Shown here one piece after another: positions 2,493 through 15,705 of a stretch of DNA of 15,805 nucleotides. The notes under the pieces are model-generated. The model did not search any database and was not told the origin of the DNA. It saw only the letters and a program-made list of their open reading frames with translations. The position numbers and the translations under genes are program-made. The stretch comes from an uncultured Alphaproteobacteria bacterium (GTDB lineage Bacteria > Pseudomonadota > Alphaproteobacteria > Rhizobiales > Xanthobacteraceae), in the NCBI GenBank assembly GCA_963816565.1, contig CAWFLM010000012.1:1-15805 (forward strand). The letters are read 5' to 3'. How positions within the stretch are numbered: the first letter of the stretch is position 1; the number at the start of each line of letters is the position of its first letter.

Positions 2493-2955
2493 TTACCCGG
2501 CGAGCAGTTCTTCACCATCGCGCTGGCCTTGCCGAAATCCATCTGTCCGGAGAAGCGTTCCTTGAGCGCCGTCATGGTGCGGCCCATGTCCTTGAGCGTG
2601 GCCGCTTCGAGTTCCTTGATCAGCGACGAGATCGCCTCGCCCGCTTCGACGTCGGACAAGCTGCTTCGGCAGGTATCCGGAGATGATCGTCGATCTCCTC
2701 GCGCTCCTGGTCGGCGAGTTCGGCGCGTCCGGCTTTCTCGTAGATTTCGAGCGATTCCTGCCGCTGCTTGATCATCTTGCCCATAACGTCGAGGATTTCG
2801 GCATCGCTGAGCGTGAGCGCGTTCCGCGGCGCTGGTCTCGCGCTTCAATATCTCGGCATTGATCAGGCGCAGCGTCGAAATGCGGCGCTTGTCGCCTGCC
2901 TTCATTGCGGTCTTTGAGGGCGTTGTTGATATCGTCGCGCAACACGGCTATGGCC
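2493..2955 (-). CDS. GatB/YqeY domain-containing protein. It is frameshifted; the true stop appears to be TAA at 2493-2495.
   Basis: ORF 2462-2905 (-) reads MKAGDKRRISTLRLINAEI...GEAISSLIKELEAATLKDMGRTMTALKERFSGQMDFGKASAMVK, the typical YqeY C-terminus. Upstream in another frame it reads ...LRDDINNALKD. A 1-nt deletion near the 3' end turns ...MVKELLAG* into ...MVKNCSPG.... The position upstream of dnaG matches Nitrobacteraceae synteny. Confidence 0.75.
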
Positions 2956-3014
2956 TCATGCAATTCGCAAAATCGCCCGCACGGCGGGCGGCGCGCGCAC
3001 GATGATGTAGGCGC

Positions 3015-4239
3015 TTGCCGATGTTGACACAACCGCAGACCCGGCAGCTCTGGGACGATCCCGCGCCGACGGCGCTGCTCGTGCTGGCCGACGGCACCGT
3101 GCTCGAAGGCTTGGGCTTCGGCGCGACCGGCCATGCCGTCGGCGAAGTCTGCTTCAATACCGCGATGACCGGTTACGAGGAAATCCTCACCGATCCGTCC
3201 TATGCCGGCCAGATCATCACCTTCACCTTTCCGCATATCGGCAATGTCGGCACCAACGAGGAGGACATCGAGACCGTCAACCTCGCGGCGACGCCAGGCG
3301 CGCGCGGCGTCATTCTGCACTCGCCGATCACCGCGCCGTCGAATTATCGCGCCACGCGCCATCTCGATGCCTGGCTCAAGAGCCGCGGCGTCATCGGGCT
3401 TTCGCGGCATCGACACCCGCGCGCTCACCGCGCTTCATCCGCAAGAACGGCATGCCGAACGCGGTGATCGTCCACGAGCCGTCCGGCCGCTTCGATCTCG
3501 ATGAGCTCAAGCGCGAAGCGAGGCAATGGCCGGGACTGGTCGGCATGGACCTCGTGCCGATGGTGACTTCCGGCCAGCGCTTCACCTGGCAGGAGACGCC
3601 GTGGGTCTGGGGCGAAGGCTACGGCGAAATGCGCGACGCCGGAATTTCACGTCGTCGCCATCGATTACGGCATCAAGCGCAACATTCTGCGCCAGCTCGC
3701 CGGCAGTCGTTGCAGGGTGACGGTGGTGCCGGCGCAGACGTCGGCCGCCGACATTCTGGCGCTCAAGCCGGACGGCATTTTTCTCTCCAACGGCCCCGGC
3801 GATCCGGCCGCGACCGGCGAATATGCCGTGCCGGTGATCCGCACCCTGATCGAGCAAAAGCCGGTGTTCGGCATCTGCCTCGGCCACCAGATGCTGGGCC
3901 TCGCGCTCGGCGGCCAAGACCATGAAGATGCATCAGGGCCATCACGGCGCGAACCATCCGGTGAAGGATCTCGCGACCGGCAAGGTCGAGATCACCTCGA
4001 TGAATCACGGCTTCGCGGTCGACCGCGCCAGCCTGCCGCCGAACGTCGTGGAAACCCACGTCTCGCTGTTCGACGGCTCCAATTGCGGGCTCGCGCTCAA
4101 GGACCGGCCGGTATTCTCGGTTCAGTACCATCCCGAGGCGTCGCCCGGCCCGCGCGACAGCCACGGGCTGTTCAAGCGGTTTGTCGACCTGATGCGGGAG
4201 TTCAAACGGAGCTTGAGCGCGGGCAAAATCCGGGCCTGA
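3015..4239 (+). CDS. carA: Carbamoyl-phosphate synthase small (glutamine amidotransferase) subunit CarA. It needs about 3 frame shifts.
   Basis: ORF 3015-3467 reads [40 protein letters not shown]...[33 protein letters not shown], the CPSase small-chain N-domain. The pieces at 3452-3925 and 3717-4529 carry the GATase domain ([43 protein letters not shown]). ORF 3922-4239 reads [14 protein letters not shown]...MNHGFAV...[26 protein letters not shown]. Confidence 0.92.
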
Positions 4240-5535: not shown

Positions 5536-6776
5536 TCAGGCGACCGCTGCGAGCGCGCGCATGCGCGCCTGATCCACCAAGGCTCCGTTGCTTGATGACA
5601 TGCGCCGGCGGTTCGTGAAAGCGCAGCGCCTCGATGACGTCGGGTTGGTTCAGCACGACAAGGTCGGCCACCGCTCCCTCGGTCAACCGGAAGCCCGGAA
5701 GGTTGATGGCGGTGGCCGCGTCGACCGTGATCATGTCGTAGAGCTTTTCGACATCCTGCCGCGTCATCATCCATAACAGGTGCGAGGCGAGGAACGCGAC
5801 TTCCAGCATGTTGTTGCGGCCGAACGCGTAGTAGGCGTCGGAAATATCGTCCTGGCCGAGGCAGACGACGACGCCCTCGGCCAGCAATTCCTTGACGCGC
5901 GCGTGCAACGGACCGGTGTGCGGATCGGTCACGACAGCGATCCGCGCCGCACGCAAAAGCCGCGCGAGCCGCTGCACATAGGGCATCGGATAAAGGCTCA
6001 TCGCCCGGCAATGGTGCGCGAGCGCGCGGCCGTGCCAGCCGCGCTCGATGGTCTCGACCGCCATCATTTCCAGCGTGCGCAAACCGGGATCGCCGGCATC
6101 GTCAAGAAGCATGGAAACGTCCTTGTCGAATTTTTGCGCAAGATCGAAACAGGCTTTCACGTGCTTCGCGGCATCGGCCGTCGGTAAACTCGATCCACGG
6201 AATGCCGCCGACCACATCGGCGCCGAGCGCCATCGCCTCGCTGCATCAGTTCGAGCGCGCCCGGCTCGCGGACGATGCCGTCCTGGGCGAAGGCGACGAT
6301 TTGCAGATCGACAATGCCGCGGAATTCGTCGCGAACGCGAATGAGCGCCTTCACGCCTTCAAGACGCGCCTTGCCGTCAACGTCGGCAAAAGCACGAATG
6401 TGCAAGTTGCCGTGAAGCGCCGCCAGCGCCACGGCGCGGCGCGCATTTTCGACGATCCAGGATTTCCGCGTATTTTTCTTTGATCTTGCTGGCGAGTTCG
6501 ATGCCGGCCATCGCTTTGCCCATCGCCTCGCCCTGATAGGACTTGAGCGCTTCCTCCTCCATCATCGGCAAGCGTCCACACCTTGCACAGATGCAGGTGC
6601 GGATTGACGAAGGATTCGGTCACCAGATTGCCGCCGGCGTCGATCTCCGTCGTTCCGCGGCGATCGAGATTTTCACCGATAGCAACGATGCGGCCGTTCT
6701 TGATGCCGATCTCGGCAAGCCGATCGCGGCCGCGGAGCCGGGCACGGCGGATGGCGATGTCGAACGGCTGATCCAT
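5536..6776 (-). CDS. Amidohydrolase-superfamily protein, cytosine-deaminase/AtzC-like. It is split over 3 ORFs.
   Basis: The N-terminal ORF 6351-6776 (-) reads MDQPFDIAIRRARL...GGNLVTESFVNPHLHLCKVWTL, an HxH metal-binding motif. The middle ORF is 6157-6432 (-). The C-terminal ORF 5456-6217 (-) reads ...IAVVTDPHTGPLHARVKELLAEGVVVCLGQDDISDAYYAFGRNNMLEVAFLASHL.... A likely true C-terminus ...VIKQ-GALVDQARMRALAAVA* in the alternate frame ends near 5536. Confidence 0.8.
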
Positions 6777-7042
6777 TGCTCGATTTTAGTTCAAGGCGCT
6801 GCGAAAGCTTCTTGCTGCTAAAAGCCGACATATACCCCGGTCGTGGTGTATTTCCACCAAAGCGAAACTCTATTCTCGATCTCTTAGTTGCTCCGACCGC
6901 ACTATTTCCCCTGAGACAGGGAGCTTGCATGGTATTGCGCATTCTCACGGTCTGTCGCATCGTGATTTTAAGGATTTAGCGACCAGCTTTCCGCGTGCTC
7001 GGCGGCGATTCAACGATGGGTCCGATCAATTGACCGTATCCG

Positions 7043-8106
7043 ATGCAAAAAATGGGCTGCCCCCGTCCCACAAGCGGTGGTTCAACCCCTGACCCGCGCC
7101 GCGATCTTTCTGATCGTGACCATAAATCCTGGCGTCGAAAATCGTGCGGCCGTCCGGTCATTCTGCGGAGACCTGCCGGCGCTCCTTCGCGCCGTGGGTT
7201 TCCGCGACATCGAAGGCGAGCTTGTCCTGCGTCCTCGGATTTGGATCGGATGCGTGGGACAGGCTTTTCGGCACGCCGCGGCCGGCCGAGCTGCATCCGT
7301 TCCGCGAAATCAAGGCCGGTCCCCGCCATGCCGTCGCCACGCCCGGCGACATGCTGTTTCACATCCGCGCCAAGCGCATGGATCTCTGCTTCGAGCTGGC
7401 CACCCAGATCATGGCGCGGCTCAAAGATGCGGTTTCGCCCGTCGACGAGGTACACGGCTTTAGATATTTCGATGACCGTGATCTGGTCGGATTTGTCGAC
7501 GGAACGGAAAATCCGACGGATCAAGCGGCACTCGACGCCGCACTCGTCGAGCCTGGAGGACGCCGCGTTTGCCGGCGGCAGCTACGTGATCGTGCAAAAA
7601 TACTTGCATGATCTGGCCGGCTGGAACGCGCTATCCACCGAAGCTCAGGAACGCATCATCGGCCGCACCAAGCTTTCAGACATCGAGCTTGATGACGCTG
7701 TCAAACCAACATGCGCTCACAATGCGCTCACCACGATCGTGGAGGACGGCAAGGAAGTAAAGATCGTTCGCGACAACATGCCGTTCGGCTCGGTGGCGAA
7801 GGCGGAGTTCGGGACCTATTTCATCGGTTACGCTCGTTCGCCCCGAACGATCGAGCAAATGCTGGTGAATATGTTCGTCGGCCGGCCTCCTGGCAATTAT
7901 GACCGGTTGCTGGATTTCAGCCGCGCTGTAAGCGGCAGTCTTGTTCTTCGCGCCGTCGGCGACGTTCCTGGAGAATGTCGCGGACGACGAGCCCGTGGCG
8001 CCTTTGCCGCCGCGCTGCGGTTGCGGCGCCGGCGCAACCGGCGGCATCTGCGCGCGATGGATCGCTCGGTATTGGTTCCCTCAAAGGAGATCCTCCTCAT
8101 GAATAA
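7043..8106 (+). CDS. Dyp-type peroxidase, encapsulin cargo, with a C-terminal targeting peptide. It needs about 4 frame shifts and the 5' start is uncertain (7043-7077).
   Basis: Frame 0 reads ...AVVQPLTRAAIFLIVTINPG...LRAVGFRDIEGELV. Frame 1 (ORF 7144-7611) reads ...LHPFREIKAGPRHAVATPGDMLFHIRAKRMDLCFELATQIMARL...VDEVHGFRYFDDRDLVGFVDGTENPTD, the DyP GXXDG motif. Frame 2 reads ...GGSYVIVQKYLHDLAGWNALSTEAQERIIGRTK...GTYFIGYARSPRTIEQMLVNMFVGRPPGNYDRLLDFSRAVSGSL. Frame 0 then reads SLFFAPSATFLENVADDEPVAP. Frame 1 ends ...PAQPAASARDGSLGIGSLKGDPPHE* with TAA at 8104-8106. SLGIGSLKG is the canonical encapsulin cargo-loading peptide. Confidence 0.88.
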
Positions 8107-8938
8107 TCTTTACCGCGAGCTTGCTCCGATCTCAGACGCGGCGTGGTCTCAGATCGAGGAGGAGACCTCCCGCACGTTCAAGCGCTACCTCGCCGGACGG
8201 CGCGTCGTTGACATGCAGGGTCCGGGCGGTGTCGCGCTTCCGGCCATCGGCACCGGCCATTTGCGCGATATTAAAGCGTCCGGCGACGGCATCATCTCGC
8301 GCCAGCGCGAGGTGAAAGCGCTGGTCGAACTGCGCGTACCCTTCGAGCTTAGTCGCCAGCAGATCGACGATGTCGAGCGCGGCGCTAACGACTCAGACTG
8401 GCAGCCCGCGAAGGACGCCGCGCAGAGGATAGCCTTTGCGGAAGATCGCGCCATATTCGAAGGCTATGTCGCCGGCGGAATCGGCGGCATCCGGGAAGGG
8501 ACCAGCAATCCAGTGACGGCGCTTCCAGCCGACGTGCGCGCCTACCCGGACGCCATCGCCAAAGCGGTAAGCCAGTTGCGTCTGGTCGGCGTCAACGGTC
8601 CATATTCCGTGCTGCTCAGCGCCGATGCCTACACCAGCCTCAGCGAGACCAGCGATCACGGTTATCCGGTACTTGACCACGTCAAACGTCTGGTGGATGG
8701 CGAAATTATATGGGCGCCGGCAATCGCGGGCGCATTCGTGCTGACAACCCGCGGCGGCGATTTCGGCCTGTACATCGGCCAGGACGTATCGATCGGCTAT
8801 CTGAGCCACACCGAAGCAGTCGTCCGCCTTTACCTACAGGAGACATTCACTTTTCTCTTGCTCACGACGGAAGCTGCTGTCGCGTTAGCTCCCCCTGCGG
8901 ACGCGCGGTCGAATCCCGCTCAGCGAAAGCAGCGCTGA
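8099..8938 (+). CDS. Family 1 encapsulin nanocompartment shell protein (HK97 fold). It is the only long gene here that reads through without frame breaks.
   Basis: It reads MNNLYRELAPISDAAWSQIEEETSRTFKRYLAGRRVVDMQGP...DDVERGANDSDWQPAKDAAQRIAFAEDRAIFEGY...VGVNGPYSVLLSADAYTSLSETSDHGYPVLDHVKRL...EIIWAPAIAGAFVLTTRGGDFGLYIGQDVSIGYLSHTEAVVRLYLQETFTF. This matches characterised DyP-associated encapsulins end to end. Its ATG at 8099 overlaps the DyP stop (cATGAATAA). The last about 14 aa (PADARSNPAQRKQR) may be a read-through of a frame error. Confidence 0.92.
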   Translation: MNNLYRELAPISDAAWSQIEEETSRTFKRYLAGRRVVDMQGPGGVALPAIGTGHLRDIKASGDGIISRQREVKALVELRVPFELSRQQIDDVERGANDSDWQPAKDAAQRIAFAEDRAIFEGYVAGGIGGIREGTSNPVTALPADVRAYPDAIAKAVSQLRLVGVNGPYSVLLSADAYTSLSETSDHGYPVLDHVKRLVDGEIIWAPAIAGAFVLTTRGGDFGLYIGQDVSIGYLSHTEAVVRLYLQETFTFLLLTTEAAVALAPPADARSNPAQRKQR

Positions 8939-9148: not shown

Positions 9149-9941
9149 TTAGTTCTTCGCCTGCCCGTTGGCCTTCAGAAAGTCCTGATAGGTGAGGCCC
9201 GCGTAGTTCGGCGTGGTCGGCGCTTGCGTTGCGTCGGCAGCCGGCGCCACAGGCGCTGCGTCGATGGATTTGCTGCCGGCCGGCGACACCGGGGTCGTGT
9301 CGGACAGGCCCCACCGACCGGCGCGCTGGCCGCTTCTTTGGTGAAGACTCGGCAAACACCACTAGGCCATCCTGCGTGTAAGCCTTGGTCAGGCAGGTGC
9401 ACGGACCGGGCGAAGCCACAGACACCGGGGCCGCATCCGCGAGTTCACCAGCAACCGTATCGATAGATACAGCGACCATCACGGAGAATCCAGTGCCCGT
9501 GACCATTGAATGCCCAGCCGGGTTGACCCGGGAAACCTGGACGGCCGGGATAGCCTGGACGGCCCGGATTGAGGATCGGAAGGCCAACCGTGCGACCGCC
9601 GCCACCGTTGTAGCCGCCTGTGCCAGTGCCGACGCGGCCACCGTTACCGGTACCAGTACCGACCTGGCCACCATTGTTGCCGGCGGTGCCGAGACCGCTG
9701 CCGGCGCGCTGCTGTTGCCGAAGTTGTTAGCGGAAACGGTGCTGTACTGTACCGGAAACTGAGCTGGCGCCGAAGGCGCGTACCGCTGGCGGTCTTGTCC
9801 GCGAGACACTGTGGTTGACGCCGCTGCCGCGACTGGCATTACCGCCGCCGCTGGAACCACGGGCATAAGATTCGCTAGATGAAACGAGGCAACGGTGATC
9901 GTGGCCGCGGCTGCAAGGCTGAGGATGAGGGTGCGTGACAT
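9149..9941 (-). CDS. Paralog A of a secreted Gly/His-rich, Cys-containing protein of unknown function. It carries a signal peptide and several 1-nt indels.
   Basis: The ATG at 9939-9941 sits behind GGAGAAC-N6. The N-terminus MSRTLILSLAAAATITVASF is a Sec signal peptide. Alternate frames give a Gly-rich region (GSGLGTAGNNGGQVGTGTGNGGRVGTGTGGYNGGGG), a collagen-like PGRPGYPGRPGFPGQPG stretch, then GWAFNGHGHWILRDGR, then ...ELADAAPVSVASPGPCTCLTKAYTQDGLVVFAES-TKEAASAPVGGA..., and the C-terminus ...DAAPVAPAADATQAPTTPNYAGLTYQDFLKANGQAKN* (ORF 9149-9355). The 303-aa ORF 9030-9941 is an artefactual read-through. Confidence 0.6.
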
Positions 9942-9974: not shown

Positions 9975-10014
9975 TTGCGATACCCGTTAGTCGGAGTTGT
10001 CGGAGAAAGGTTCA
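9975..10014 (-). promoter_or_regulatory. Putative ECF-sigma-dependent promoter of paralog A.
   Basis: On the minus strand it reads TGAACC (plus 10009-10014), then TTTCTCCGACAACTC (15 nt), then CGACTAA (plus 9987-9993), then the conserved AACGGGTATCGCAA. The -10 element ends 45 nt before the ATG. The same architecture is found upstream of paralog B and of the ECF sigma gene. Confidence 0.4.
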
Positions 10015-10134: not shown

Positions 10135-11013
10135 CTATTGGACCAGTTCGAGCACAAAATCCATCGGCTCGGCAATCGAATAACCCGAGTTAAGAAGCAT
10201 CGTAAAATCCGCCGCTTTTTCGGTCAGTGGAATAAACTCAGTCATGATGCCGACAAGATGAAAGTATATTTCAGAACCCTCCGGATCGATTTCAAATACC
10301 GGCCCTCCGCTGTTTCCCCTGTACACCGGGCCATCAATAATCAAAGAACGTCTTTGCGGATCTTTTCCGGCGATAAAAGCCTTTCGCAGCAGCGGCCGCA
10401 GCGGATCGAATTGTTGGTGTCAGGAAGACCCAGCGACGCCGGGTAGCCATACAAAATAGCATCGTTTCCGACCAGAACTTGATCGAACTTTCGGACCGCA
10501 ATCATTCCCGCACTAACCAGGCCGCTGTCCGCAAATTCGACTTTTGCGACCCCCGGCGAAAAGAATGTCATCAGCGAGTGATCCTGGGCTTCCTTCAGAA
10601 TCCCGAGCTTGATGGCTGCAACATCTCTCGTTTTGTGCGGCTTCACATCGCCCCGATCCAGCAGCATTTTGAAATCGACCCTCAGCAAAATCCGCTGCGG
10701 CGTCGGCTGATCCATCGAGTATGACACCAGTTCAAGAACCAGATCCGGCACTTCGGCTTTGTGGGTTTTTTCGTTGGGCAGGCCTGACGCTATGACGTGT
10801 TTTGCGGTCACCAAATATTCTGCATTGGCGGTACCAAAATAAAAACCCGAGCCAAAGCCCAACGTCGTTCCACTACTGTTTTTCATGATAACCAAGACGG
10901 GATAGGCCAAATTGTCGTCGGGAATCATCCGCCTCGCCTGCGCCAAATTGATCGACACGAACGGCCAAAGCGACGACCAGGAACAAGCGGCTGATTTGGA
11001 GCAGGTGATTCAT
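10135..11013 (-). CDS. Secreted trypsin-like (S1 / chymotrypsin-fold) serine peptidase. It sits in a low-GC island and has 2 frame shifts.
   Basis: A signal peptide MNHLLQISRLFLVVALAVRVD starts at the ATG at 11011-11013. ORF 10341-10958 (-) carries the His motif LVTAKHVIASG and the Asp motif TRDVAAIKLGIL. ORF 10135-10344 (-) carries the Ser motif YRGNSGGPVF (GDSGGP-like) and ends ...SIAEPMDFVLELVQ*. GC is about 47-50% over 10.1-11.1 kb, against about 65% in the flanks. Confidence 0.75.
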
Positions 11014-11239: not shown

Positions 11240-11886
11240 TCAGTTCTTTTCCGCTGCCTGCGCTGCCGCCTGGCCGTTGGCCTTCAGGAAGTCCTGATAG
11301 GTGAGGCCCGCGTAGTTCGGCGTGGTCGGCGCTTGCGTTGCGTCGGCAGCCGGCGCCACGGGCGCTGTGTCGTTGGACTTGCTGTTGGCCGGCGGTACCG
11401 GGGTAGCGTCGGAAGAGGCGCCGCCGATCGCCGCGCTGGCTGCTTCTTTGGTGCACATATCGGCGAACACCACCAGACCGGCCTGCGTGTAAGTCTTGGT
11501 CAGGCAGGTGCACGGACCGGGAGCAGCCGCAGATACGGGCGCCGCATCCGCGAGGTCACCATCCACCGGGTCGATGACGATCCAGCGGCCACCACGGAAA
11601 ATCCAGTGTCCGTGACCATGGCCGGCCCAACGGCCGGGAGCCGGAGCCGATCCGGGTGACCGGGACGGTCGCCATTGCGGGCTACACGTCCGCCACCATC
11701 GCGGCCGCCGCGGCCGGCGCCGGTACGTCCGCCGACATTGACGTGACCGCCGACGCTGGCATGACCGCCGAAACTGGCATGACCGCCGCCGCCGCCGAAA
11801 CCGTGGGCGTAAGAAGCGCTGGAAGCAAGCGAGGCGACGGTGATCGTGGCCGCGGCTGCGAGGGTGAGGATCAGGGTGCGTGACAT
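11240..11886 (-). CDS. Paralog B of the secreted Gly/His-rich, Cys-containing protein, about 215 aa. It has a signal peptide and at least 1 frame shift.
   Basis: The ATG at 11884-11886 sits behind GGAGAAC. It reads MSRTLILTLAAAATITVASLASSASYA, a signal peptide with an AxA cleavage site. This is followed by HGFGGGGGHASFGGHASVGGHVNVGGRTGAGRGGRDGGGRVA, which contains GGHxx[FV] hexapeptide repeats. After a frame shift it reads ...APGRWAGHGHGHWIFRGGRWIVIDPVDGDLADAAPVSAAAPGPCTCLTKTYTQAGLVVFADMCTKEAASAAIGGASSDATPVPPANSKSNDTAPVAPAADATQAPTTPNYAGLTYQDFLKANGQAAAQAAEKN* (ORF 11240-11566). The 263-aa ORF 11500-12291 is an artefact that runs past the true start. Confidence 0.65.
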
Positions 11887-11918: not shown

Positions 11919-11959
11919 TTTCGATACCCGTTGGTCGGTGGCTCCCGGAGAAAGGTTCA
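11919..11959 (-). promoter_or_regulatory. Putative ECF-sigma-dependent promoter of paralog B.
   Basis: On the minus strand it reads TGAACC (plus 11954-11959), then TTTCTCCGGGAGCCAC (16 nt), then CGACCAA (plus 11931-11937), then AACGGGTATCGAAA. The -10 element ends 44 nt before the ATG. The 5'-UTR ...CCCTGGAGAAC(A/G)AC(G/C)ATG is conserved with paralog A. Confidence 0.4.
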
Positions 11960-12177
11960 AAGGGGACAGTGAAATTCTCGATAGGCGCGGGGCGGGACCG
12001 GCCGGGGTCGAGCGGCGAGCCGCCTACTATTAAGTTTGCTTGAGTCGGCGTTGGCGGAGCTGACGCTGAAAGCCCATAAAACAAGGCTTTTGGCCTTCGG
12101 CTTGCCCTACCGCACATGAATAAGGAAACTGCCGGTACTCGAGTAGCCGAACCGCGCAAATTTTCTTCGATTTCAAT

Positions 12178-12206
12178 TGAACCTGGGCGCCGCTCCCAAC
12201 GACCAA
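12178..12206 (+). promoter_or_regulatory. Putative autoregulatory ECF-type promoter of the sigma factor gene.
   Basis: TGAACC (12178-12183), then TGGGCGCCGCTCCCAA (16 nt), then CGACCAA (12200-12206). It lies 23 nt upstream of the ATG at 12230. It has the same -35/-10 sequences and spacing as the promoters of paralogs A and B. Confidence 0.35.
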
Positions 12207-12229
12207 TTTTACGAGCCGATAGCCTGCCG

Positions 12230-12790
12230 ATGCAGACGACTTCGGACGAGGTTCTGATCGGAAGGATCGCCAATGGCGACCGGCTCGCCATGCAGGTGCT
12301 GTTCGCGCGTCACCATGTCCGGGTTTACCGATTCGTGCTGCGGCTGGTGCGCAACGAGGCAACGGCGGAGGATTTGATCAGTGAGGTGTTCCTCGACGTC
12401 TGGCGGCAGGCCGGCAGGTTCGAGGGACGGTCAGCGGTGTCGACCTGGATGTTGAGCATCGCCCGCTTCAAGGCGCTGTCGGCGCTGCGCAAGCGTACCG
12501 AGGAGGAGCTGGATGACGAGACGGCCAGCGCGATCGAGGATCATGCCGACGATCCGGAGGTCTCGCTGGCGAAGAAGGATAAAGCCGCCGTGTTGCGGCA
12601 ATGCCTGGGCAAGCTCTCGGCCGAGCACCGGGAGGTCGTCGACCTCGTATACTACCATGAGAAATCGGTGGAGGAGGTCGCGGGCATTGTCGGCATTCCG
12701 GAGGCGACCGTGAAGACGCGCATGTTCTATGCGCGGAGGAAACTGTCGGAGCTCCTCAAGGAGCAAGGAATGGATCGAGGTTGGCCATGA
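12230..12790 (+). CDS. ECF-family RNA polymerase sigma-70 factor.
   Basis: It reads MQTTSDEVLIGRIANGDRLAMQVLFARHHVRVYRFVLRLVRNEATAEDLISEVFLDVWRQAGRFEGRSAVSTWMLSIARFKALSALRKR, which is region 2. It continues ...LSAEHREVVDLVYYHEKSVEEVAGIVGIPEATVKTRMFYARRKLSELL, which is region 4. The six-frame ORF starts at 12116, but the N-terminal alignment and the promoter favour 12230. Its TGA overlaps the anti-sigma ATG (CCATGACC). Confidence 0.9.
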   Translation: MQTTSDEVLIGRIANGDRLAMQVLFARHHVRVYRFVLRLVRNEATAEDLISEVFLDVWRQAGRFEGRSAVSTWMLSIARFKALSALRKRTEEELDDETASAIEDHADDPEVSLAKKDKAAVLRQCLGKLSAEHREVVDLVYYHEKSVEEVAGIVGIPEATVKTRMFYARRKLSELLKEQGMDRGWP

Positions 12791-13467
12791 CCGCGGCGCA
12801 AGGAAAGCGAGCCGAACGAAATCGAACTCCTGCTGCCTTGGCACGCGGCGGGAACGCTCAGCCAACGCGACAAGCAGCGCGTGGAAGCCGCGCTCGCCAA
12901 CGACCCGGAGCTTGCGCGCCGCTACCAGCTGGTGCGCGAGGAGCTTGGCGAGACCATCCACCTCAACGAGACGCTGGGGGCGCCATCGGCGCGCGCCATG
13001 GAAGCGCTATTCGCCAAGATCGACGCCGAGCCGGCGCGAGCCCCGGCGGTGTCGATCAATGTCGGCGTGCGCATTCGCGAATTTTTGCCGGCCTTTCGCC
13101 GCGCACGCTTGCCTGGTCGGCAAGCGCGGCGATGCTGGCCATTCTGCTGCAGGCCGGATTGATTGCCGGCATTCTGTTCAAAGAACAAGGCGCCCAGACT
13201 GCGGCCAACTACCAAACGGCCTCGCTGTCGCGCCCGGCCAGCGGCGAAGGTTCCTATGCGCTGATCCGTTTCCAGCCGCAGGCCAATGCCGCCGAAATCA
13301 GCAAATTCCTGGAAACCAACAAACTCACTATCGCCGACGGCCCGTCGCCGGGCGGGCTATATCGGGTGCGCGTCGCGCCGAGCAAGGTTTCCGGTACGGA
13401 CCTCACCGGCATCGTGAAGAAGCTGCAGGACAATAGCGTTGTGGGCTTTATCGCCCCCACGGAGTGA
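12787..13467 (+). CDS. Cognate anti-sigma factor, a single-pass membrane protein. It needs 2 frame shifts.
   Basis: Stitched over 3 frames it reads MTAAQGKRAEPNEIELLLPWHAAGTLSQRDKQRVEAALANDPELARRYQLVREELGETIHLNETLGAPSARAMEALFAKIDAEP.... It then reads ...LSPRTLAWSASAAMLAILLQAGLIAGILF, which is a transmembrane helix. It continues ...YALIRFQPQANAAEISKFLETNKLTIADGPSPGGLYRVRVAPS...VGFIAPTE*. The N-terminal ELLLPW..G.LS motif is typical of ECF anti-sigma factors. It is translationally coupled to the sigma gene. Confidence 0.75.
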   Translation: MTAAQGKRAERNRTPAALARGGNAQPTRQAARGSRARQRPGACAPLPAGARGAWRDHPPQRDAGGAIGARHGSAIRQDRRRAGASPGGVDQCRRAHSRIFAGLSPRTLAWSASAAMLAILLQAGLIAGILFKEQGAQTAANYQTASLSRPASGEGSYALIRFQPQANAAEISKFLETNKLTIADGPSPGGLYRVRVAPSKVSGTDLTGIVKKLQDNSVVGFIAPTE

Positions 13468-13556
13468 TCGTCCTGCCACAGTTTGGCTTGAGAGTTCTGC
13501 CATTGAAGGCGTTGCCGACACTAGCGCGGTGCGCACCGCCGTATCGGGAGGTTGCC

Positions 13557-15705
13557 ATGCGAAGCAAGCGATGACGTCCCGATCGATCCTGGGGGTTATG
13601 CTCTTCGGTTTGTTTTGGCGGTAGCTGCATTGACAAATCTGGCCCCGCCGCAGCGCGCGGCTTCGGCGGCGGCGTTTTGGCGGGGGGGCGCGCGGATGTT
13701 CGCGGCATGCGCGGCGGCGGATCGCACCACGAATGACGCGGAGTAGCGGCAGGACAAGTGGCGGTACATCCACCAAACGCGACGTCGGCAATTCGAGCGG
13801 ACCAGGACAACAAACACGTCGGGGACGGCCAGCCATCACGCGAACGTCGGCCGCCAATTCCGGAACAAAAACGACAAATACTGAACCAACTACAATTCTA
13901 GCTTGAGTTCATCCGGCAAGCACCGTCAAAAACGACGCATCAGGGGAACGGCAACATTTCGACCTCGAAAACATTGACGAATCAACACCGGTTCGAAAAC
14001 AACCAACATCAGGGGAGCAGCAACACTTCCACTGCGAACACGTCGACGACTGCCGGCTCGAGAACAACGACACGCAAGGAAGCGGCAACAATTCCACCGT
14101 GAACAGGTCGGCGAGCAATACCGGCTCAAGAACCACGACCACGACCGGCAACACGTCGACATCGAACACGTCGAACGCCAATGCCGGCTCGACGACAACA
14201 AACACACAGGGGCCGGCCAACACCCACCGGAAACACTCAGCCGCCAACAACGGCTCGAGGACGGGAAGCACGCCGGGGACCGGCGGCAATTCCACATCGA
14301 ATACGCCGGGCGCCACTACCGGTTCGGACACTGGTCGGGCCGGGGACGGTCGCTAATGCCGGCTCGAATACATCTGACACGCCGCGCGGTGGCGGCCGCG
14401 TTCCCGGCTGCAGTGCCGAACATTCCGCCGGGGCCTGTTGGTCTTGGCGGTGGCGGTGGCGGCGCAGGGGGTGGCGGCGGAGGTGCCGGTGGCGGCGGCG
14501 GAGGTGGCGCGGGTGGCGGAGCCAATGTGGCCAGCAGCGGCGTCCCACCGCGAAACGAGCGGCGCTACGTACCTGACGAAGTCATCGCTGAGTTTTCGTC
14601 GACCGCGACGCCGCAATCGATCGATCAGCTCGCACGCCGGTACAATTTGACCCGGCTTGAATCGCAAAGCTTCCCATTGATCGGCACCATCATTTACCGC
14701 TGGCACATCAACGGCCGCCGCTCAGTCCGGATACAATCGGTGCGATCGAAGACCAGCGCGTCGTCGCCAGAGCACAGCCCAATTACCTTTTCACGCTGCA
14801 AGCAGACGCCACAACCCCGGCGACAAAAACCCGCGGCGACGATTCGGCCCAATACGCCCTCGGCAAGCTGCACATCGAACGCGCGCATCAAGTCGCGACC
14901 GGGAAAAACATTCCGATTGCCTTGATCGACTCCGAGATCGACGTGAAACATCCGGACCTGAATGGAGCAATCACAAAAAGCTTCGATCCGCTCGGTGGAG
15001 ATGCCAAGCCGCACCCGCACGGCACTGCCATGGCAGGCGCCATCGCCGCGCACGGGAAACTTTCCGGCATCGCTTTAGGCCCGCATCTGTTGGCGGCGCG
15101 CGCCTTCGACAACACCGCGGGCGAGACCAAGGGTACCTCTCTTGCGATCTACAAAAGCCTGCAGTGGGCCGCGGACAATGGCGCTCGCGTCATCAACATG
15201 AGCTTCGCCGGCCCCGCCGACCCCGACATGCACCGGATGCTGGCGGCCGCATACGAGAAAGGCATCGTGCTGGTAGCGGCAGCCGGAAACGCCGGACCCA
15301 ACTCCGCACCGCTTTATCCGGCGGCCGATCCCGACGTCATCGCGGTGACTGCCACCGACAGCAATGACGGTCTGTTCAAGATGGCCAACCGCGGCTCATA
15401 CATTGCCGTTGCTGCTCCGGGCGTGGAGATTCTGGCACTGGCGCCCGGTAAACCGTATCAGATCACCACGGGCACCTCGGTCGCCGCGGCGCATGTCAGC
15501 GGGATCGCGGCAATGCTGCTCAAAGAAAAACCTTCGCTCACGCCCAACAAGTCCGCTCGATCATCATGTCTACTGCCAAGCCGCTCGGATCGGCCGGCCA
15601 GCGATCGGACTTTGGCGCCGGACTGGTCGATGCCTACCAGGCGGTGACGGCGATAGGAACGGCAAGCCGGCGGTTAAACAGGACGCCGAACAGGCAAAGG
15701 AATAA
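13557..15705 (+). CDS. Secreted subtilisin-like (S8) serine peptidase. It has a long N-terminal low-complexity Ser/Thr/Asn/Gly repeat region, a poly-Gly tract and an I9-like propeptide. The N-terminal part has many frame shifts and the 5' extent is uncertain.
   Basis: The catalytic domain (ORF 14922-15647 plus neighbouring frames) reads IALIDSEIDVKHPDL (Asp), HPHGTAMAGAIAAHG (His), AAAGNAGPNS (Asn) and TTGTSVAAAHVSGIAAMLL (Ser). The propeptide reads NERRYVPDEVIAEFSSTATPQSIDQLARRYNL.... Upstream are GLGGGGGGAGGGGGGAGGGGGGGAGGG and NTGSRTTTTTGNTSTSNTSNANAGSTTTNTQGP... repeats. A candidate signal peptide MRSKR-MTSRSILGVMLFGLF-LAVAALTNLAPPQRAASA sits at 13557, 6 nt after GGGAGG. Every frame has stops between 13746 and 14100, so the link between the signal peptide and the protease rests on assuming indels. 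The gene ends ...AYQAVTAIGNGKPAVKQDAEQAKE* at 15705. Confidence 0.8.
13920..14400 (+). repeat. About 7 degenerate tandem copies of a unit of about 60-68 nt that encodes an STNG-rich peptide repeat.
   Basis: The anchor [AT][AG]CCGG[CT]TC[GA]A recurs at about 13988, 14051, 14119, 14181, 14249, 14317 and 14356. Spacings are 63, 68, 62, 68, 68 and 39 nt. Translated units look like NTGSRTTTTTGNTSTSNTSNA, NAGSTTTNTQGPANT... and NNGSRTGSTPGTGGNSTSNTPGA. Confidence 0.6.
14443..14525 (+). repeat. GGN codon tract encoding poly-Gly (G6-7 A)x4.
   Basis: The DNA reads ggcggtggcggtggcggcgcagggggtggcggcggaggtgccggtggcggcggcggaggtggcgcgggtggcgga. The antisense poly-Pro ORF 14316-14525 and the WRWRW/AVAVAA ORFs in other frames are artefacts of this tract. 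Confidence 0.7.

Follow-up and report, generated by a model that had tools for sequence, protein, structure and literature searches.

A probable autoregulated operon encoding an extracytoplasmic function sigma factor, its anti-sigma factor and an S8 subtilase in uncultured soil Xanthobacteraceae

Pairings between extracytoplasmic function (ECF) sigma factors and anti-sigma factors are the third major mode of bacterial signaling, and only a minority of the groups have a known input signal. The algU-mucA-mucB-mucC-mucD locus of Pseudomonas and the rpoE-rseA-mucD locus of Xanthomonas are operons that combine the genes for an RpoE-like ECF sigma factor under its own control, an anti-sigma factor with a single membrane span and a serine protease of the periplasm. 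Anti-sigma factors of the membrane can be removed by regulated intramembrane proteolysis, as is RseA by DegS and RseP, RsiW by PrsW and RsiV by signal peptidase. Here we describe a stretch of 15,805 nucleotides (the window; contig CAWFLM010000012.1, assembly GCA_963816565.1) from an uncultured alphaproteobacterium of the Xanthobacteraceae, in which an ECF sigma gene is followed by the gene of an anti-sigma factor and then by that of an exported subtilase of family S8 (the S8 protein). The region from 12178 to 15705 is probably a conserved, autoregulated envelope-signaling operon of uncultured soil Xanthobacteraceae, a reading drawn from comparisons of sequence. The window is high-GC DNA (~63%), and its nearest relatives are metagenome-assembled genomes (MAGs) of uncultured soil Xanthobacteraceae, many of them in the Microflora Danica long-read set.

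Unexpectedly, the putative sensor domain of the anti-sigma factor, which faces outward, looks like the prodomain of the protease, a likeness hinting at direct action of the protease and the switch on each other. Like the algU-muc and rpoE-rseA-mucD operons, the locus brings a serine protease together with a sigma factor and its anti-sigma factor, and this sigma factor resembles AlgU-type factors and sigma-E. The protease, however, is an S8 subtilase with a prodomain, whereas that of the two known operons is an S1C enzyme (HtrA/DegP) with PDZ domains. A MucB/RseB gene is absent, unlike in algU-muc, and the periplasmic part of the anti-sigma factor is predicted to form a small alpha/beta domain that is prodomain-like, while the sensor domains of the anti-sigma factors in the two known operons are unrelated to the protease. 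As in the systems controlled by intramembrane proteolysis, the anti-sigma factor is a membrane protein with an extracytoplasmic domain, the removal of which by a site-1 protease would, in our proposal, free the sigma factor. To our knowledge, a subtilase has not been recognized as a site-1 protease before, nor is any anti-sigma sensor domain known to resemble the prodomain of its protease.

ECF sigma factors have been linked genetically to subtilases before: in ECF54, the conserved neighborhood contains carboxypeptidase, subtilase and CHAT genes, the group was described without an anti-sigma factor, and the proteases were proposed to degrade the sigma factor itself (PMC8999054). The present locus shares this linkage and differs in having a canonical anti-sigma factor and an exported protease. 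A full-text literature search returned only this ECF54 context and no description of an anti-sigma factor with a prodomain-like sensor or of a subtilase acting as a site-1 protease; proteases are not mentioned in the paper on ECF factors of Bradyrhizobium.

Operon structure and predicted regulon

The sigma factor matched the Pfam domains Sigma70_r2 (8.8e-18) and Sigma70_r4_2 (1.6e-12) and has only the sigma-2 and sigma-4 domains, as is typical of ECF factors. It scored 332 bits against the NCBIfam model NF009168 (cutoff of 236), and its closest relatives of solved structure were SigL, AlgU-type factors, SigK and sigma-E. The start codon was placed at 12230 because a conserved promoter sits at 12178-12203 (Table 1), and a longer open reading frame (ORF) starting at 12116 was rejected, since this promoter lies downstream of 12116.

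The promoter motif is conserved. Of the 68 regions upstream of sigma, 65 to 67 contained TTGAACC at a constant ~52 nucleotides from the start codon, and the extended motif TTGAACC-N16-CGAC(C/T)nA was found in 66 instances ~27 nucleotides upstream of that codon. The strict motif occurred three times in the window (0.2 expected). The two further copies, both on the minus strand, lie 48 nucleotides upstream of the start codons of paralogs A and B, two secreted Gly/His-rich proteins, and across loci 56 instances of the motif preceded members of this gene family. None lay between the anti-sigma and S8 genes in the loci examined. Autoregulation of the sigma factor from this predicted ECF-type promoter is probable. 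As the same promoter motif, in the opposite orientation, stands before one or two Gly/His-rich genes, the predicted regulon would comprise the genes for sigma, anti-sigma, the S8 protein and the secreted Gly/His-rich proteins, and the distribution of the motif supports this prediction strongly. In a more distant clade the -10 element reads GCTGCCTAA. The same ECF motif was found, in a more distant clade (Table 1), just downstream of the S8 gene, before a gene encoding a polytopic membrane protein of ~225 amino acids, and the regulon appears to differ between clades.

The three genes were found together in most relatives. Related loci are denoted by L numbers, and counts based on the S8 protein refer to the 82 loci encoding its relatives. 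In 70 of these 82 loci the sigma/anti-sigma pair immediately preceded the S8 gene and lay on its strand; the 12 exceptions were six contigs cut off just upstream and six second copies in a genome or most distant S8 copies. When the search was started from the anti-sigma side, the triad was found in all three places (3/3), and the genes around it differed from place to place. The closest relatives have the complete module between carA and carB-greA (L001, 819-1986 and 12408-15724; the carA of the window is at 2820-4206). Since other members of the family have unrelated flanking genes, the triad seems to move as a unit.

The stop codon of the sigma gene (TGA, 12788-12790) overlaps the start codon of the anti-sigma gene (ATG, 12787-12789). 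This ATGA arrangement, reported in the initial annotation from the sequence of the window, also occurs in the intact copy at L031, an Illumina MAG locus, and it strongly supports translational coupling of the predicted anti-sigma gene to sigma. The gap between the anti-sigma and S8 genes ranges from 12 to 157 bp among relatives. The usual proxies of a single transcription unit all agree: same strand, short gaps, no terminator and no promoter motif in the gap, and an order kept in the 70 loci. With the absence of the ECF motif before the S8 gene, they support the suggestion of the initial annotation that the three genes are probably one operon, and there is good support for co-transcription of sigma, anti-sigma and S8 from the predicted, putatively autoregulated promoter. 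The simplest interpretation is that of an autoregulated sigma/anti-sigma/S8 operon with a divergent target gene.

Some points weigh against it. The promoter is a conserved, predicted motif and not a mapped start site, an internal sigma-70 promoter may exist within the anti-sigma gene, and six S8 paralogs were found without a sigma/anti-sigma pair. In addition, the sigma/anti-sigma cassette of the window goes with a different type of S8 protein in L031, so tight pairwise co-adaptation of the cassette and the protease is not evident.

This cassette has a peculiar distribution of identities. The segment 12199-13468, which contains the 5' untranslated region from the -10 element onward, sigma and anti-sigma, is 98.7% identical to L031 (4236-5505) and ends exactly at the anti-sigma stop codon. 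The S8 gene of L031 is only ~70% identical to that of the window, and no match extends into the upstream DNA. The closest relatives of the S8 gene of the window (L006, L001 and L003 to L005), for their part, have sigma/anti-sigma genes only 78% identical to those of the window. Either a recent exchange by recombination or a chimera of assembly or polishing could have produced this pattern.

The periplasmic domain of the anti-sigma factor

The anti-sigma factor consists of a helical N-terminal anti-sigma domain, one transmembrane helix (~13108-13179) and a C-terminal periplasmic domain. AlphaFold predicted four N-terminal helices within residues 9 to 57, with a predicted local distance difference test (pLDDT) of 75 to 82 for residues 10 to 50. 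The zf-HC2 model was matched weakly by 72 of 77 homologs, and no score reached the Pfam cutoff. The N-terminal helical domain, encoded by a gene that overlaps sigma by ATGA, places the protein in class I of the anti-sigma factors. The zinc ligands of the ZAS group (H-x3-C-x2-C) are absent, as the N-terminal domain has no Cys and the corresponding position reads EAALANDPELARRY.

The model of the full-length protein was poor (pLDDT of 52), so the periplasmic domain was predicted again alone. It then gave a beta-alpha-beta-beta-alpha-beta fold with a pLDDT of ~85 over the fold. Subtilisin prosegments were the first match of the full-length model and the second match of the domain model in Foldseek; the scores were modest, no match reached an E value of 0.001 or lower, and Lrp/RAM, ACT and ribosomal S6 folds scored close. 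The prodomains and I9 inhibitors that share the predicted fold (the prosegment of subtilisin BPN'/E, the prodomain of PC1/3 and POIA1) were the best structural matches of the domain. Unlike them, it is fused to the C terminus of a membrane anti-sigma factor, lacks a long C-terminal tail and has a sequence similarity below family thresholds.

A profile search of 1.84 billion representatives assigned the domain to 829 clusters at 50% identity, nearly always at the C terminus of proteins of ~225 amino acids, and all the cluster members that were looked up came from uncultured MAGs. When 133 diverse domain sequences were added to the alignment, hhalign aligned the domain with the prodomain of the partner S8 protein over the whole fold and in register (probability of 53%, P = 1.4e-4). 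The score of 27.0 exceeded the maximum of 18.1 obtained in 200 column shuffles and the 17.6 of the reversed control. With approximate sequences of Bacillus prosegments, only the last helix and strand were aligned. Permissive Pfam scans matched PF22148 in one of 77 close and eight of 148 diverse homologs (best E value of 0.0036), always below the gathering score.

Other results of these searches speak against kinship with a prodomain. The first hhalign comparison with the S8 prodomain, made with shallow alignments, gave an E value of 0.084, which is not significant. TusA gave weak Pfam hits in 10 of the 148 diverse homologs, no fewer than PF22148 did. No S8 protease was found among the best 150 of the 829 profile hits, where only anti-sigma-like proteins were present. 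Finally, the protein ends three residues past the last strand and so has no counterpart of the long C-terminal tail with which I9 prodomains reach into the active site. On balance, we favor the view that the periplasmic domain is a homolog or a mimic of the S8 prodomain, as judged from profiles and predicted models, and a direct functional link between this domain and the S8 protein is plausible.

If such a link exists, a feedback loop can be envisaged. The sigma factor would drive its own operon, and the amount of S8 protein would rise with sigma activity as a consequence. The S8 protein would be exported by Sec, mature by loss of its leader and prodomain, and act in the periplasm. There, the mature enzyme would dock on the prodomain-like domain of the anti-sigma factor and cut it back, in the way that a subtilase processes its own prodomain. 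The trimming would start the regulated proteolysis of the anti-sigma factor and free sigma, which would close a positive feedback loop. Alternatively, the anti-sigma domain could hold the protease inhibited at the membrane. The low-complexity leader of the protease may serve as a flexible spacer or as an element delaying maturation.

Taken as a whole, this model states that the anti-sigma factor senses the protease of its own operon by prodomain mimicry: a diverged copy of the prodomain would be bound and degraded by the mature S8 protein (or would inhibit it), the maturation or activity of the protease would be read out as release of sigma, the subtilase would be the site-1 protease, and the disordered pro-region would time or tether maturation. 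We propose it tentatively and regard it as rather unlikely to hold in this full form. If true, it would reveal a new class of site-1 protease, a new coupling of protease maturation to transcription and a signaling logic undescribed for any ECF system, and it would give synthetic biology an orthogonal sigma/anti-sigma/protease switch.

A rival account, quite possible although we would stop short of calling it probable, is that the S8 protein is only an output of the regulon, with no direct contact with the anti-sigma factor. It would be a periplasmic or secreted housekeeping protease similar to MucD/HtrA, or a processor of the Gly/His-rich proteins, and the anti-sigma domain would be a generic ferredoxin-like sensor whose likeness to a prodomain is a convergence of folds. 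That ferredoxin-like folds (Lrp/RAM, ACT, S6 and MgtC) score almost like prodomains, that TusA hits are found in the Pfam scans and that all similarity statistics are below thresholds fit this account, as does the association of the anti-sigma cassette with two different types of S8 protein. The algU-mucABCD operon provides a precedent of a sigma/anti-sigma/protease operon with a protease acting on other substrates. Against a mere output stand the top ranks of subtilase prodomains by two search methods on two different models and the alignment to the prodomain of the very partner, which scored above all 200 shuffles. Furthermore, PF22148 is the same family matched by the S8 prodomain, and the domain was paired with an S8 gene in every context examined.

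Prodomain mimicry is at least a testable idea of the input, a partner subtilase acting on a prodomain-like sensor, in a unit that also offers a defined promoter motif and a small predicted regulon. The unit is widespread, with thousands of homologs in soil metagenomes, and its carriers are abundant, uncultured soil Xanthobacteraceae.

The subtilase gene, its leader and its reading frame

The S8 gene starts at 13557, on the same strand as the anti-sigma gene and 89 bp after it, close to the ~90 bp given in the initial annotation. No terminator-like site was found in 13468-13556, as also stated there, and such sites numbered five in the whole region (5.3 expected); the scans for terminators and sigma-70 promoters found nothing above chance. 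It is improbable that the S8 gene is an independent gene with a promoter of its own that merely adjoins the sigma/anti-sigma pair. The gap is moderately conserved among the closest relatives and the consensus scans, which detected no sigma-70-like or ECF promoter motif in 13468-13556, could miss non-canonical promoters. Yet adjacency persists in most loci while the flanking genes vary, and in many loci the gap shrinks to 12 to 45 bp, where conservation is limited to the ribosome-binding site and start codon.

The catalytic domain belongs to the subtilases, as the initial annotation had proposed. It matched Peptidase_S8 (PF00082, 9.8e-44), and the order of the triad and the oxyanion Asn are those of family S8. 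The closest solved sequences were thermitase (1thm, 4.9e-38) and subtilisins. With these true subtilisins (S8A) it shares an end-to-end catalytic alignment, the Asp/His/Ser triad and the oxyanion Asn. The score against the mycosin model TIGR03921 of type VII secretion was 165.8 bits, below the cutoff of 278.75. The propeptide, described in the initial annotation as I9, matched PF22148 (Fervidolysin N-prodomain-like; 3.7e-06, 27.7 bits for a cutoff of 21, residues 62 to 143 of the repaired protein) and not the I9 model itself. This match gives the protein the prodomain expected of an S8A enzyme, with a predicted chaperone function. In two homologs, P0001 and P0013 (L001, L003 and relatives; alignment A1, columns 501-520), Asn replaces the catalytic Asp (INSEID versus IDSEID), while the window has Asp; these proteins are either inactive variants or reflect base-call errors in long-read MAGs.

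The closest full-length homologs of the S8 protein have 659 to 693 amino acids and share 91 to 96% identity with the window across the prodomain and catalytic part. In the intact homologs a single ORF encodes a signal peptide with A-A-A at its end, then a GFG/GGG/MRGGG segment, the S/T/N/G repeats, a conserved TVANAGSNTSDTPRGGGR-PG stretch, a poly-Gly run, the PF22148 prodomain and the S8 domain. The long Ser/Thr/Asn/Gly region and the run of about 27 Gly/Ala residues that had been noted ahead of the propeptide were confirmed, with a length of ~0.7 to 0.8 kb for the former and ~28 residues for the latter. As intact relatives read from the signal peptide through the catalytic domain in one ORF, the low-complexity N-terminal region is coding. 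Consistently, the repeat region of seven intact loci (40 to 97% DNA identity) had 0 in-frame stops, compared with two to six in the other frames. Its length differences were all multiples of three in 18 of 21 pairwise comparisons; the exceptions were those of L007 with L003, L004 and L005, each with two gaps (23 and 11 nucleotides) that are not multiples of three. A start of the S8 gene downstream of non-coding repeats, which would have overturned the initial annotation, was rejected, since the intact homologs are single ORFs and their signal peptide lies upstream of the repeats.

The composition of the leader in homologs is dominated by G (21 to 27%), T (14 to 20%) and S (10 to 19%). In most of them autocorrelation peaked at a period of ~21 to 23 residues, visible at the protein level only; Tandem Repeats Finder (TRF) identified no regular DNA repeat in the S/T/N/G region. 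These repeats are specific to the clade of the window. More distant members keep the signal peptide and have shorter, Gly/Pro/Arg-rich spacers of 108 to 160 residues. Together, these data strongly support that the S8 protein is made as a signal peptide, 110 to 300 disordered residues rich in Gly or in S/T/N/G, a poly-Gly run, a prodomain and a catalytic domain. In thermitase and subtilisins no such disordered residues stand between signal peptide and prodomain; the host here is, moreover, Gram negative, and no outer-membrane export signal was recognized in the protein. Because mature subtilisins and thermitase align from AQYALGKL onward, we infer that the mature S8 protein begins there and that the entire low-complexity stretch is a discarded pro-region, outside the active enzyme. 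In nearly all relatives, the more distant members included, the signal peptide and its A-x-A are followed by FG(M)GGFGRMGG. The short motif A-x-A then FG(M)GGFGRMGGFG, right after the predicted signal-peptidase site (e.g., L019, L037 and L051), is the best-conserved part of an otherwise hypervariable leader.

The genes lie where the initial annotation had located them, but only the sigma gene is intact, and the frames of both the anti-sigma and S8 genes are broken in the window. Compared with L031, where the anti-sigma gene is open, that of the window differs by exactly two 1-nucleotide indels: one A too many at 12800 and one C lacking after 13083. For the S8 gene, a frameshift-aware alignment to P0004, the intact S8 homolog used as reference, calls for at least 12 single-base corrections of the frame, mostly for one-base deletions. 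At least seven of them are in the repeat region. Single-base gaps were found at matching places of the S8 gene against L006, an Illumina contig with 95.6% identity. Frame switches with respect to homologs also affect carA and the cupin, methyltransferase, amidohydrolase, Dyp peroxidase, S1 protease and both secreted paralog genes, and dnaG is apparently split, as judged from the list of ORFs and the synteny with L001. Throughout most genes of the window, single-base indels occur about once per 150 to 400 bp, for example in carA (~2820-4206), the amidohydrolase (5542-6561) and Dyp (6888-8099).

Since carA, dnaG and other genes of the window are broken alike, assembly error rather than decay explains the frameshifts, which we read as single-base errors of long-read assembly, and the real anti-sigma and S8 genes are almost certainly intact. 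That both are true pseudogenes of a decaying ECF module is very unlikely and was rejected: their two and at least 12 frame-breaking indels next to an intact sigma gene, and an indel density in S8 somewhat above that of the rest of the window, would suit decay, but comparable indels are spread over the whole window, carA and carB are split in related nanopore MAG contigs too, long-read errors concentrate in low-complexity, homopolymer-rich DNA, and the catalytic part has, indels aside, 98% protein identity to L006, retains Asp, His, Asn and Ser and shows no visible build-up of substitutions or in-frame stops. Apparent pseudogenes or gene fusions in the window should accordingly be distrusted, which matters for annotators of such MAGs.

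Neighboring genes

The positions of the features are listed in Table 1.

Table 1. Positions of the predicted features in the window (last row, in related loci)
Feature	Position	Strand	Basis or remarks
Predicted ECF-type promoter of the sigma operon	12178..12203	+	-35 TGAACC, 16-nt spacer, -10 CGAC; end 27 nt before sigma ATG
ECF (group 4) sigma factor, 186 aa	12230..12790	+	Pfam and NCBIfam matches; TGA 12788-12790
Anti-sigma factor, 226 aa after two 1-nt corrections	12787..13467	+	98.7% identity of 12199-13468 to L031
Periplasmic C-terminal domain, ~76 aa	13237..13464	+	Predicted beta-alpha-beta-beta-alpha-beta fold, subtilase-prodomain-like
Anti-sigma/S8 gap, 89 bp	13468..13556	+	Shine-Dalgarno GGGAGG present
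S8 subtilase pre-pro-enzyme gene, ~715 codons	13557..15705	+	Alignment to P0004; ATG 13557 behind GGGAGG; stop 15703-15705
Signal peptide (MRS..., hydrophobic core, ...PAAA then RGFG)	13557..13655	+	Homolog alignment; spread over three frames in the window
Low-complexity pro-region: GFG/GGG/MRGGG segment, then S/T/N/G repeats	13656..14427	+	~0.7-0.8 kb
Poly-Gly/Ala run (GLGGGGGGAGGGGGGAGGGGGGGAGGGA), ~28 residues	14440..14523	+	Translation; TRF 21-bp unit x3.4; same place in homologs
Prodomain (GVPPRNERRYVPDEV ... QPNYLFTLQ ... GDDS)	14539..14846	+	PF22148; frameshift ~14722
Mature thermitase/subtilisin-like catalytic domain	14847..15705	+	Frameshifts ~15546, ~15656; 95.6% DNA identity to L006
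Catalytic residues	Asp 14928-14930, His 15018-15020, oxyanion Asn 15288-15290, Ser 15477-15479	+	
S8 frame corrections	13566, 13607, 13624, 13734, 13769, 13924, 14067, 14333, 14409, 14722, 15546, 15656	+	Alignment to P0004
Second ECF promoter motif	11934..11959	-	Upstream of secreted paralog B, divergent from sigma gene
Third ECF promoter motif	9990..10014	-	Upstream of secreted paralog A
Secreted Gly/His-rich paralog B (MSRTLIL..., GFGGGGGH..., CTCLTK)	11240..11886	-	Frameshifts present
Secreted Gly/His-rich paralog A	9149..9941	-	Frameshifts present
Exported trypsin-like protease (S1, Trypsin_2), GNSGGPV motif	10135..11013	-	Frameshifts present
ECF motif downstream of S8 in relatives	L052 7178, L060 7184, L063 7193, L071 7189, L073 7166, L053 1484		

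Both secreted paralogs have a signal peptide, a Gly/His-rich region (GGGGHAS.GGH..., HGHGHW) and a conserved CTCLTK...DG..F.D.CT pattern, and a Pfam scan of these proteins gave no match. Homologs of paralog B were found in 57 sequences (56 loci and the window). The His-rich composition of the two paralogs suggests possible metal binding.

The S1 protease matched PF13365 (2e-07, on an intact homolog). The initial annotation had grouped it with the S8 protease and the two paralogs as a module of exported proteins around one ECF switch. The ECF motif before both Gly/His-rich genes agrees with this view as far as the paralogs are concerned; the S1 protease falls outside it, because no ECF motif was found before its gene and it is only an occasional neighbor, present in seven sequences (the window and six loci).

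The Rfam scan of the whole window gave 0 matches. Farther upstream, at 6888-8938, genes for a Dyp-type peroxidase and an encapsulin (Linocin_M18) shell form a cargo/encapsulin pair. The two are read in the window as one ORF of 631 amino acids (7043-8938). As L002 has two genes, overlapping by 4 bp, the fusion is probably an indel artifact.

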